From contig CAYWIC010000001.1 of assembly GCA_964458115.1 (NCBI GenBank), positions 11,984 to 75,983 of the forward strand: DNA of 64,000 bases, read 5' to 3'. Below are positions 21,505 through 47,262 of this stretch, piece after piece. The notes under the pieces were generated by a model. It was not told where the DNA came from and did not search any database. It worked only from the letters and a program-made list of their open reading frames with translations. This DNA is from an uncultured Anaerolineales bacterium. Its GTDB lineage: Bacteria > Chloroflexota > Anaerolineae > Anaerolineales > UBA11858. The translations under genes were made by a program, and so were the position numbers. Within the stretch, counting starts at the first letter, position 1. Every line of letters starts with the position of its first letter.

Positions 21505-21723
21505 ATGGTCAGTCAAGAGCTCATTGACATTTTACGCTGCCCTGCCTGCGTGCGGGATAAAGAAGGATTGCTGGAATTCTACAAGGAAACCTGGTTCATT
21601 TGCCAGGACTGTGGGCGCAAGTACCCTATTCGCGATGACATCCCAGTCATGTTGATCGATGAAGGTGATAAGTGGGTTGAGACCGCCAAAGACGATCTTC
21701 CCATTCCCCCACCAGAGAAATAA
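21505..21723 (+). CDS. Trm112-family small zinc-ribbon protein
   Basis: LRCPAC...CQDCGRKYPIRDDIPVMLIDE. The ATG at 21505 follows AAGGAGA. Confidence 0.75.
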   Translation: MVSQELIDILRCPACVRDKEGLLEFYKETWFICQDCGRKYPIRDDIPVMLIDEGDKWVETAKDDLPIPPPEK

Positions 21724-21809
21724 TTTTTGGGTAGTTGCTCAACACGGTTGGGAAACTCCAGATTGATTTCCCTTCATCGCCAACGCGGGTGGCTTCCTAC
21801 GCACGAGGT

Positions 21810-22388
21810 ATGCCTAATCTTCAACCCATAATTTCCAAACTGACCAGTGGGGATGATGCCATGGCTGAAGCTGCTGCGATAGAGATCGCAGCTTTCGGCA
21901 GAGAGGCGTTACCAGCATTGGAATCACTACTTGCCTCTGAAAATGCAGACCACCGCTGGTGGTTCACGCGAACTTTGGCGCTGATCGCGGACCCTCGGGC
22001 ATCCACTATGCTCCTAGAGTCTTTTCAAGACACAGATGTTGCAGTTCGTCAATGTGCTGCCCTGGCATTGAAAGAGCAACCCACTCCAGAAGCGATCCCA
22101 GCGCTGATCATCGCCCTTGATGACACAGATCGTCTGCTTTCACGTCTAGCAGGTGATGCACTCATTGCCCAAGGAGAAGTAGCAGTTCCGGCATTAATTG
22201 AAATCTTGGAAAAGGGGGAACAACGTCAACAGGGAGACGCTGCTAGAGCCTTAGCTCTGATTGGGGATACGCGCGCCATCCCCGTGATGTTCGAAGTTTG
22301 GGAACGTGGTTCCATATTGGTCCAGCATTGGATCGAGCAGGGTTTCGAACGAATGGGGGTGGGGATGACATTTTTTAATCCAGAATGA
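21810..22388 (+). CDS. HEAT-repeat (PBS-lyase-like) protein
   Basis: Repeated A-x-ALG..GD..A.P.L motifs, for example AARALALIGDTRAIPVM. The start is uncertain; the ORF is open from 21735. Confidence 0.55.
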   Translation: MPNLQPIISKLTSGDDAMAEAAAIEIAAFGREALPALESLLASENADHRWWFTRTLALIADPRASTMLLESFQDTDVAVRQCAALALKEQPTPEAIPALIIALDDTDRLLSRLAGDALIAQGEVAVPALIEILEKGEQRQQGDAARALALIGDTRAIPVMFEVWERGSILVQHWIEQGFERMGVGMTFFNPE

Positions 22389-44167: not shown

Positions 44168-46063
44168 TTAGTCTGCCAAGGTGCTGGTATCGCCTTCATC
44201 TTCACCGAGAGCTTGCGCTTTGAGCAGTCGGCGCATGATCTTTCCACTGCGAGTTTTCGGCAGGCTATCAACGAAGGAGATGCTCTCTGGTTTTGCAATG
44301 GGCCCCATTTCTTTGCCAACATGTTCGATCAATTTATTTACCAGATCATCACTCCCCGTTTGACCAGCATTCAAAATTACATAGGCATGTACAGCGCTGC
44401 CTTTGATATCGTGCGGAAGACCGATCACGGCCGCTTCGGCAACAGTGACATGGCTAACCAATGCGCTTTCGACTTCAGCAGTGCCCAATCGGTAGCCACT
44501 CACCTTGAGGACATCATCCATACGCCCGATGACCCAGATATAGCCGTCCTTGTCCTTGCGCGCCGAGTCGCCAGTTTGGTACATATCCCCAAACTTTCCC
44601 CAGTATTGCTGTTTATAGCGCTCATCATCCCCATATACGGTACGTAGCATCCCCGGCCAGGGTCTTTTTAGCACCAGATAGCCTTCTTCGCCTGCTTTGA
44701 CGGATTTCCCATCGTCATCCACGACATCGACTTCATGTCCGAAGAACGGTTTCGTTGCCGAACCGGGCTTGAGAGGCGTTGTTGGCAACGGTGTGATTAC
44801 GAAGCCCCCGGTTTCAGTCTGCCACCAGGTATCCATGATGGGACACTCATCGTTGCCAATCACCTTGCAATACCATCTCCAGGCTTCGGGATTGATAGGC
44901 TCTCCCACGCTTCCAAGCAGGCGCAAGCTCGAAAGATCATAACGTTTCGGCCATGCATCGCCGTAGCGCATTAGTCCTCGTATGGCGGTAGGTGCGGTGT
45001 AAAGGATCGAAATTCCAAACTTTTCGATCATGCGCCACCAGCGATAGGGATATGGATAGTTCGGTGCGCCCTCATACATGAAGCTGGTTGCTCCGGCGAT
45101 CAACGGAGAATAAACAATATAACTATGACCGGTGATCCAACCGGGGTCAGCAGCACACCACCAACGGTCTTCATCCTTGATATCGAAGACGGACTTCAGG
45201 GTGGTATACGTATAAACCTGATAGCCGCCATGGGTATGAACAACTCCCTTTGGGCGACCAGTAGTACCCGAAGTATACAGAATGAAAAGCAGATCTTCGG
45301 CATCCATGAATTCGGTTTCGCATTTAGGGTTGGCGATGGGCAATTCCAATAGATCGTGGTACCAGTAATCCCGCCCGGTTTCCATATAGATTTCCTGTTC
45401 GGTGCGTTTGACCACAATGCAATTTTCGATGGTAGGTTGACGAGCCATGGCTTCATCGGCGATATTCTTCAACTCTACGATTTTGCCGCGCAGCCAACCG
45501 CCATCAGCAGTGACTAGCACACGGCTTTGAGCATCTTCGATGCGCTCAGCCAACGCCTCCACACTGAAGCCACCGTAAACCACGCTATGTGCAGCACCAA
45601 TCTTGGCGCAGGCCAGCATCGCGAATACTTGCTCAGGGATGCGCGGCATATAGATAGTTACGATGTCCCCTTTCTGCACGCCCATGCTCTTGAGAATATT
45701 GGCCATCTTGCTGACCTCACGATCTATGGCGTGATAGGAAAACGTGCGCACATCGCCGGGCTCGCCTTCCCAGATCAGTGCCAGTTTATTACGCCGCCAG
45801 GTTTTCAGATGTCGGTCAATGGCGTTGTGGACGATATTGGTTTTGGCACCCACGAACCACTTGAAGAAAGGAGCATTACTATCATCCAGAACCCTGTCCC
45901 ATTTTTGGAACCATTCCAGTTGCTCAGCTCGTTCAGCCCAAAAGCCCTCCGGATCTTCAATGGATTGTTGGTACCAGGTTTCATAGTCCTGAACGTTAGC
46001 ATTTTGCACGATATCCTGGGATGGAAAAAATACTTCCCCCTCGATTTTTTGATCTTTTAACAT
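44168..46063 (-). CDS. acs: acetyl-CoA synthetase
   Basis: YTSGTTGRPKGV AMP-binding motif, WWQTETGG, YQTGDSARKDKDGYIW, and C-terminal PKTRSGKIMRR. The ATG at 46063 follows AGGAGGA. Confidence 0.95.
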   Translation of the reverse strand: MLKDQKIEGEVFFPSQDIVQNANVQDYETWYQQSIEDPEGFWAERAEQLEWFQKWDRVLDDSNAPFFKWFVGAKTNIVHNAIDRHLKTWRRNKLALIWEGEPGDVRTFSYHAIDREVSKMANILKSMGVQKGDIVTIYMPRIPEQVFAMLACAKIGAAHSVVYGGFSVEALAERIEDAQSRVLVTADGGWLRGKIVELKNIADEAMARQPTIENCIVVKRTEQEIYMETGRDYWYHDLLELPIANPKCETEFMDAEDLLFILYTSGTTGRPKGVVHTHGGYQVYTYTTLKSVFDIKDEDRWWCAADPGWITGHSYIVYSPLIAGATSFMYEGAPNYPYPYRWWRMIEKFGISILYTAPTAIRGLMRYGDAWPKRYDLSSLRLLGSVGEPINPEAWRWYCKVIGNDECPIMDTWWQTETGGFVITPLPTTPLKPGSATKPFFGHEVDVVDDDGKSVKAGEEGYLVLKRPWPGMLRTVYGDDERYKQQYWGKFGDMYQTGDSARKDKDGYIWVIGRMDDVLKVSGYRLGTAEVESALVSHVTVAEAAVIGLPHDIKGSAVHAYVILNAGQTGSDDLVNKLIEHVGKEMGPIAKPESISFVDSLPKTRSGKIMRRLLKAQALGEDEGDTSTLAD

Positions 46064-46246
46064 GCTCTTTCCTCCTCGAATGAATAAGGGATACGAATAA
46101 GCGATTATTTCATACAATCCTCTAAAACCCAATTCTTTCGAGATGGTTTCGTATCGACGGCGATTCCCATAGACTCAACCTCGAAAATTACCGTAATTGG
46201 ATAAATTTAGTTATAATATCAGGAGTTACGCACTTGAAGTGGATTG

Positions 46247-46373
46247 GGCTGGGAATAGGGGGTGGGGGGGGGGGCGCCCCCCCCCCCCGGGGCGCCCCCC
46301 CCCCTTTTTGGGGGGGGGGGGGGGTTTTGGGGGGGGGGGGGGCCCCCCCCCCCCCCACCCCCTATTCCCAGCC
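46247..46373. repeat. 127-bp palindrome made of long G and C homopolymer runs
   Basis: GGCTGGGAATAGGGGG-T-G11-CG-C12-G4-CG-C10-T5-G15-T4-G14-C14-A-CCCCCTATTCCCAGCC. The outer arms are perfectly complementary over 28 nt. Confidence 0.8.
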
Positions 46374-46431
46374 ATTTTTTCGCTGGACTGCGTACGTCCT
46401 AAATATGTAGTTTTATCCATGGAGGATCAGT

Positions 46432-47262
46432 ATGGAACGCGACAGTTTTCTCATTGAAGCCGATGAGTTGCTTACCAAAATCAAAGACCCCGATATCCGC
46501 ATTTACGATGCCACGATCATGTTCCACATGGGCATGAGCCCAGAGGAAGCCGCCAAAATGCCGACAGCCCAAGAGATTTATCTTCAGGGGCATATCCCCG
46601 GCGCGGCCTTCTTCAACCACCTGGATTTCTCGGATACCGATAGTCCCTACGAGTACATGCTGGCTGCGGATGACAAACTGGCGGACCAGATCGGGAAAAT
46701 CGGTATCGCAAATGTTTCCGAGGTTATCTTGTATGCTACCACTCTTTTGGCTACCGCCACGCGGGCCTGGTGGTTGCTGCGCTATGCCGGTGTGGAAAAT
46801 GTGCGTGTGCTCAACGGCGGTTTCCCAACATGGAAGGAAGCGGGCGGGGCCATTGAACAGGATGCGCGGTTTTATCCAGCGGTCCAGTTTGATGCCCAAT
46901 TCGATGCGGACATGTTTGCCAATAAGAAAGAAGTGCAGTCCGCTATTGAAAACGACGACGTGACCGTCCAGAACTCCCTGACGCAGGACTGGCATGACGA
47001 TGAGCACATACCAGGTTCCACTTGCCTGCCGCTCACGGACCTGACGATTGGATGGGACGCTTTCTTGCCGGAGGATCAGTTGGGGGCGCTCCTACCGGGC
47101 ACCGACCGTCAAAAGCGCATCATCACCTACTGTGGGGGTGGCGTTGCTGCAACGCTGAACGCCATGGCTTATATGATGAACGGCTTCGAGAATGTGGCCG
47201 TTTATGATGGTTCCTTGTATGAATGGATTGGGGAAGGGTTGCCAGTGGCAAGTAATGAGTAG
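46432..47262 (+). CDS. two-domain rhodanese-like sulfurtransferase
   Basis: Tandem rhodanese domains with the active-site loop YCGGGVAAT in the second. A GGAGGA ribosome-binding site precedes the start. Confidence 0.8.
   Translation: MERDSFLIEADELLTKIKDPDIRIYDATIMFHMGMSPEEAAKMPTAQEIYLQGHIPGAAFFNHLDFSDTDSPYEYMLAADDKLADQIGKIGIANVSEVILYATTLLATATRAWWLLRYAGVENVRVLNGGFPTWKEAGGAIEQDARFYPAVQFDAQFDADMFANKKEVQSAIENDDVTVQNSLTQDWHDDEHIPGSTCLPLTDLTIGWDAFLPEDQLGALLPGTDRQKRIITYCGGGVAATLNAMAYMMNGFENVAVYDGSLYEWIGEGLPVASNE

Follow-up and report, generated by a model that had tools for sequence, protein, structure and literature searches.

Between an acetyl-CoA synthetase gene (acs) and a rhodanese-domain gene of an uncultured Anaerolineales bacterium, the assembled DNA contains a 127-bp palindrome built largely from long runs of G and C. 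Is this palindrome a real element of the genome, or was it produced by sequencing and assembly? We analyzed the 64-kb stretch that surrounds it (the window), which corresponds to positions 11984-75983 of contig C1 in a draft MAG, here called G000 (299 contigs, 5.28 Mb, 50% GC, with 10-N scaffold gaps). The two genes are divergent, with acs on the minus strand and rhodanese on the plus strand, and members of the acs protein cluster carry the name acetate--CoA ligase. A repeat element sits between them (Table 1).

At 46247-46373 the assembly reads GGCTGGGAATAGGGGG-T-G11-CG-C12-G4-CG-C10-T5-G15-T4-G14-C14-A-CCCCCTATTCCCAGCC, an exact match to the string and run lengths given in a preliminary description of this locus. 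Its outer 28 nt on each side are perfectly complementary, as had been claimed. The palindrome is upstream of both genes, at 58 nt from the rhodanese ATG and 184 nt from that of acs, in agreement with the earlier figures of about 60 and 185 nt. All six G or C runs of 10 nt or longer in the window fall inside these 127 nt, a clustering far beyond chance. Across the whole of G000 there are 80 such runs, compared to about 8 estimated for 50% GC, and nearly all of them lie at the centers of palindromic repeats or at contig ends.

A short mobile repeat carries the hairpin

The preliminary description had proposed a genome search for more GGCTGGGAATAGGGGG arms, and this check proved decisive: it returned about 70 copies, nearly all with an apex of 3-7 nt. 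Allowing up to two mismatches, the 20-nt arm core CTGGGAATAGGGGGTGGGGG is present in G000 as 73 forward and 71 reverse arms. The apex between paired arms is exactly 5 nt long in 42 of 56 pairs and 3-7 nt in 51, and the 5-nt apices read CGAAG, CTTCG, CTACG, CGTAG and similar. Only five pairs have expanded apices. These are the window copy (83 nt) and the copies on contigs C43 (164 nt), C111 (124 nt), C80 (15 nt) and C101 (16 nt), with 10-N gaps inside the apices on C43 and C111.

The arms are the center of a larger repeat. From an alignment of 48 clean copies we derived a consensus of about 104 nt, TAGGAGTTACGCACTTGAAGCGGATTGGGCTGGGAATAGGGGGTGGGGG-CGAAG-CCCCCACCCCCTATTCCCAGCCATTTTCTCGCTGAACTGCGTAAGTCCTA, and the window copy would measure about the same if it had a normal 5-nt apex. 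The repeat is bounded by 13-nt terminal inverted repeats with the consensus TAGGA(G/C)TTACGCA, which has 135 matches in G000, including 21 pairs spaced approximately 100-119 nt apart. An exact 5-bp target duplication is found at the same offsets in 12 of 30 copies, and the mean longest word shared by the two flanks is 4.8 nt, compared to 3.82 ± 0.16 nt for shuffled pairings (maximum 4.43 in 500 shuffles). The copies are intergenic in 45 of 48 cases and have no strand bias. Presence and absence also vary between genomes: the site upstream of rhodanese is empty in one relative, and the copy on C43 is missing from the ortholog in the sister species G006.

Table 1. Features of the acs/rhodanese intergenic region, in window coordinates.
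Feature	Position	Strand	Description	Basis
acs	44168..46063	-	Acetyl-CoA synthetase gene, 631 aa from ATG 46063	PF16177, PF00501, PF13193
TATAAT	46212..46217	+	-10-like hexamer left of the insertion, overlapping the target duplication	Conservation in relative
Target-site duplication, left copy	46215..46219	.	AATAT, 5 bp	Flank comparison
MITE-like repeat copy	46220..46401	+	A-end to B-end, 182 nt as assembled	Family alignment
Left terminal inverted repeat	46220..46232	+	CAGGAGTTACGCA, 13 nt	Family consensus TAGGA(G/C)TTACGCA
Left hairpin arm	46247..46268	+	GGCTGGGAATAGGGGGTGGGGG, judged genuine	Arm family; G006 ortholog; L019, L020
Homopolymer core	46269..46351	.	83 nt of G/C/T homopolymers, judged a very likely sequencing and assembly artefact replacing an apex of about 2-7 nt	Ortholog, assemblies, family
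Right hairpin arm	46352..46373	+	CCCCCACCCCCTATTCCCAGCC, judged genuine	Arm family; G006 ortholog; also L041
ATTTTTT tail	46374..46380	+	Directly after the stem; terminator-like with a short apex, in the rhodanese direction	
Right terminal inverted repeat	46389..46401	-	TGCGTACGTCCTA, 13 nt; reverse complement TAGGACGTACGCA	Family consensus
Target-site duplication, right copy	46402..46406	.	AATAT, 5 bp	Flank comparison
Rhodanese-domain gene	46432..47262	+	276 aa, ATG 46432	PF00581; ORF list

These are the properties of a miniature mobile element under the MITE definition that we applied (PMC10969869), which calls for a length below 500 bp and no coding capacity; the consensus of about 104 nt has both. 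The CTGGGAATAGGGGGTGGGGG arms also occur in G001 (29), G006 (79) and G007 (34), and with G000 these are the 4 genomes that contain the family among 13 searched in the genus. We found no autonomous insertion sequence with matching terminal repeats in G000, a genome that is 85% complete, and its sole long pair of terminal inverted repeats (C111, 2436 nt) encloses ordinary genes. A search of Rfam returned only sub-threshold generic hairpin or miRNA noise, the best being BjrC80 (34 bits; gathering score 80). We conclude that the repeat is a MITE family new to the record, from an uncultured Anaerolineales genus, and that it belongs to an already known kind, the prokaryotic MITEs.

Several other properties of the family emerged from the alignments. 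Relative to the outer ends of the element, the apex occurs about equally often in either orientation among the 48 clean copies (CGAAG 9 and CTTCG 6; CTACG 6 and CGTAG 5; for example C3:69953, C16:27600, C14:24982 and C97:14899), and it looks as if the loop flips between perfect arms. Short variants also exist, at C111:~2585-2640 and at 10 other pairs of terminal repeats 40-99 nt apart. In the C111 copy, the one example that we read, the central GC hairpin is missing from between the outer ends; the short variant may be a deletion of the palindrome or an ancestral form. Finally, at C16:16690-16800 in G000 the MITE occupies a site where G006 (L059, from contig C101) has a different sequence of about 100 nt between the same flanks, which suggests an insertion hot spot or a replacement.

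The homopolymer core in orthologs and other assemblies

In G006 (GCA_964438295.1), the element is present at the orthologous position between acs and rhodanese, where the flanks share 93% and 85% identity with those of the window, and its apex there is only TA. This TA apex is backed by an independent Logan contig from a different run (L043). A second orthologous pair has G9C6 at the apex in G000 (C80) compared to CTACG in G006 (C38), between flanks that are 92% identical.

Four other, independent assemblies of the same strain give a similar answer. Five contigs (L017-L020 and L041) carry an acs or rhodanese gene whose protein is the same, or nearly the same, as in the window, and all five break at or inside the element. 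L018 stops where the element and its arms start, while L017 begins to the right of the hairpin, within the right terminal repeat. L019 ends after G8, L020 continues as G8-TAGCG-C12-GATTACCCGGC before ending, and L041 starts with TTTTTTGGGTTGGGGGGGTGTTTT-G13-CGGCA-C9. The contigs that enter the core differ from the window and among themselves, and none spans it, so the core is reproduced by no independent assembly of the strain. Neither the left nor the right flank had an exact match among metagenome contigs, in a search that may miss records near the window's own genome.

Long G runs are also distributed in a way that follows the assembly rather than the phylogeny or the element. Runs of G13 are absent from G001, G006 and G007, all of which carry the MITE family, and are abundant in G000 (98 + 64), G004 (824 + 665), G023 (452 + 262) and others. 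G004 is without the MITE family, and G023 belongs to another bacterial family. Expanded sites occur in G000 and G004 where hairpins of at least three unrelated repeat families have their apices; 10-N scaffold gaps are found in them, together with long runs of each of the four bases. Poly-G is found at contig 3' ends and poly-C at 5' ends, and patterns of the form arm-Gn-Cm-A4-5 recur across sites.

The expanded copy on C43 of G000 (21680-21883) shows directly that bad reads entered the assembly. After its left arm comes an 83-nt duplicate that aligns without gaps to the true right-hand sequence at 77% identity, and beyond this duplicate lie 10 N, homopolymer junk and then the true copy. The duplicate aligns with a score of 109, compared to 37 ± 5 for shuffles, and is a clear local assembly error. 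Because the duplicate is laden with errors, bad reads that crossed the hairpin must have been assembled into G000. A lag-type miscall signature was not significant in this echo (9/19 vs 0.39 ± 0.11). We also compared the window core with the arm and flanks as a possible noisy echo, and the match was not significant (24 vs 12.4 ± 4.0, with a shuffle maximum of 24; 21 vs 16.0 ± 4.1).

Similar structures were seen elsewhere in G000. Two further families of palindromic repeats (GTCTCTGGGAAACGCCGTGGGACTATCCAGATGTAGGGGTGGGT... and CCGAAAAAGGGGTGTGGGCC...) have apices occupied by GnCm junk, by N gaps or by contig breaks, at G000:C1:80427-80508 (outside the window) and on contigs C6, C44, C97, C98, C101, C137 and C151. 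G004 has like junk at cognate repeat families. One contig of G000 ends in G51 (C117:17389-17439) that does not adjoin these repeat hairpins and appears as a plain poly-G assembly tail. In addition, G000 contains hybrid hairpins that pair a normal arm with one of the form AATC-G11, or of the form C11-GATT when it is on the other side (C16:16722-16766, C16:27600-27644, C60:23522-23566 and similar). The exact hybrid motif GGAATCGGGGGGGGGGG was found only in G000 and not in G001, G006 or G007. Of the copies with an AATC-G11 arm, one corresponds to a site that holds a different repeat in G006, and two are at sites without an ortholog there. A single rule, A>C and T>G miscalls in the arm that is read second, would explain both hybrid types, and the short G11 runs of these arms may also be systematic errors.

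Given these comparisons, the 83-nt core is very likely an artefact of sequencing and assembly, located where an ordinary GC-rich MITE hairpin has its tip. The grounds for rejecting it are comparative and internal. They bear out the caution in the preliminary description that runs of this kind resemble sequencing or assembly artefacts.

The main alternative is that all 127 bp are real and that the MITE apex expanded in vivo, for example through replication slippage at the G5/C5 tip, to give a hypermutable element prone to cruciform or G4 formation. We consider this unlikely. The contig does run unbroken through the core with no N gap, and reads or k-mers with such runs must therefore have existed. 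A partial motif beside the right arm, TTTT-G13/14 followed by a C run, is common to the window and L041 and could be real, but a systematic miscall would give it equally, and TTTT followed by a G run and a C run recurs at hairpins of other repeat families. Heterogeneity of tract length in the population would also break assemblies at this point, yet the assemblies disagree in content and order, beyond tract length. The expansion would also have to be reconciled with the 2-nt apex at the same site in the sister species, with the absence of G13 runs from G001, G006 and G007, which also carry the family, with the like pattern at unrelated hairpin families and in unrelated assemblies, where N gaps and A/T junk accompany it, and with the C43 duplicate, which demonstrates that bad reads were assembled in this genome. 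The wider claim that would follow if the expansions were real, that GC-rich MITE apices in some Anaerolineales populations undergo in-vivo expansion of G/C tracts, is less likely still. If true, slippage or hairpin cleavage with imprecise repair would be possible routes, and strain-variable promoter tracts prone to cruciform or G4 formation would be the outcome.

A chimeric join is highly improbable. Here, acs and rhodanese would not be true neighbors, and two contigs ending in the MITE would have been merged through their arms and poly-G/poly-C tails. A repeat of about 70 copies at which many contigs end would lend itself to such an error, and the independent contigs hold acs or rhodanese, never both. 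However, acs and a rhodanese remnant are also neighbors in G006, where a single contig carries both, separated by the same element, and the outer ends match the window. In addition, the window copy is flanked left and right by an intact AATAT, the pattern that a single insertion would leave. Least probable of all, and still an artefact, is that the core formed in library molecules by PCR or amplification stutter or by hairpin snap-back: the A and T runs, the reproducibility of the arm-Gn-Cm-A4-5 patterns across sites and the non-significant lag-type signature would fit, and nothing here separates this origin from base-calling failure.

We return to the artefact reading and interpret the locus as follows. 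A non-autonomous MITE of about 104 nt inserted just after a conserved TATAAT upstream of rhodanese, before the window's species and G006 split. Reads entering its very stable inverted repeat from either side would degenerate into low-complexity miscalls, and the assembler or scaffolder would have stitched the bad read tails together into 83 nt. Inverted repeats, in both directions, and GGC motifs are known to trigger consecutive Illumina miscalls and to hinder de novo assembly (Nakamura et al. 2011, NAR 39:e90, PMC3141275). The arms of the MITE begin with GGC, and the predicted DNA hairpin has a free energy of -31.6 kcal/mol. The miscalls may be attributable to dephasing at the folded template (Nakamura et al. 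2011), possibly together with no-signal G calls, and we infer that the window core arose in the same way as the other bad-read assemblies in G000. That dark cycles called as G were the source of the G runs is our conjecture.

The status of the core bears on several earlier proposals. G-quadruplex and i-motif structures had been suggested for its G tracts, and the element, with its hypermutable homopolymer tracts, had been suggested to gate either promoter. The G tracts exist only in the unreproducible core, while the genuine arms hold G5-T-G5. Because these ideas depend entirely on the rejected sequence, they are left without support. The 127-bp feature is best filed as not real, and it fits what is known of sequence-specific read failures caused by inverted repeats. 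Its main value is as a caution. G000 and at least one congener (G004) hold dozens of fabricated G/C-run blocks at hairpin repeats, and such blocks, with N-gapped junk and duplicated flanks, could pass for phase-variable tracts, G-quadruplexes or novel palindromes.

A terminator-like hairpin in the rhodanese leader

With the core set aside, the MITE still places a genuine 22-bp GC-rich hairpin upstream of rhodanese. In a terminator scan of the window the 83-nt core hides this hairpin, whereas the clean G006 ortholog is flagged as terminator-like on the rhodanese strand, with 20 pairs (the maximum of the scan) and the tail ATTTTTTCGC. The stem and its T-run have the form of an intrinsic (Rho-independent) terminator, and we regard them as a putative terminator in the rhodanese leader.

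The element is absent from one relative (L036-L038 and L040), in which another gene lies upstream of rhodanese. Its rhodanese is 88% identical to that of the window (242/276 residues), GATAAA(T/A)TTAGTTATAAT is conserved upstream, and GATAAAATTAGTTATAAT is kept ahead of the gene. This conservation suggests that TATAAT is probably the rhodanese -10 box and that the MITE inserted right after it. A consensus promoter scan of 46000-46480 found no sigma-70-like promoter and no full match. Transcripts from a TATAAT promoter would start in the MITE and meet the GC-rich stem followed by AUUUUUU. The earlier idea that the palindrome could gate a promoter thus survives in a weaker form, as a genuine hairpin with ATTTTTT between TATAAT and the rhodanese start, while gating by homopolymers does not.

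In G006, the rhodanese ortholog downstream of the same insertion is a pseudogene (L042:343-1224; GCA_964438295.1 contig CAYTKR010000039.1). Its ribosome-binding site, start and first 11 codons are deleted, and the remainder, which is approximately 90% identical to the intact G000 protein, contains one frameshift and two in-frame stops. This single observation is compatible with insertional silencing followed by decay of the gene. The genuine biology of the locus is modest: a MITE with a terminator-like hairpin between a -10-like box and the rhodanese start, and, in G006, one small case, open to testing, in which a MITE may have silenced a gene.

Comparison with known systems

The expanded apices share much with the Illumina errors described at inverted repeats (PMC3141275): a long GC-rich repeat that starts with GGC, errors from both directions, assemblies that break or degrade at the repeat and, in the C43 echo, sequence laden with errors after the hairpin. 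They differ in that homopolymers tens of nucleotides long have been built into a contig here. The lag signature of that earlier work was statistically undetected in the single echo that we examined (C43).

In two-color Illumina chemistry, lost signal is called as G and produces poly-G tails. Contig ends in poly-G or poly-C, including the G51 end, and the patchy occurrence of G runs across assemblies resemble such tails. In contrast to them, the junk described here also includes long runs of C, A and T.

Among repeats, the element resembles REP/BIME sequences in being a short GC-rich intergenic hairpin present in many copies. REPs are without terminal inverted repeats or target duplications and are mobilized by RAYT transposases, whereas the element described here has both terminal inverted repeats and a 5-bp target duplication.

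The closest match is to the prokaryotic MITEs, such as Correia elements, RUP and SPRITE (PMC10969869; Delihas 2011, PMC3184786). In common with them, the family consists of intergenic elements without coding capacity, about 104 nt long and present in about 70 copies, that end in 13-nt terminal inverted repeats and are flanked by a 5-bp direct duplication of AT-rich targets; their predicted fold is very stable. The family differs in that its core is GC-rich rather than AT-rich, no parent insertion sequence or transposase was found, and it was seen in 4 of the 13 genomes searched in one genus. SPRITE is the closest functional analogy, since both it and the element at the acs/rhodanese site have a terminator-like hairpin with a T-run in one orientation.
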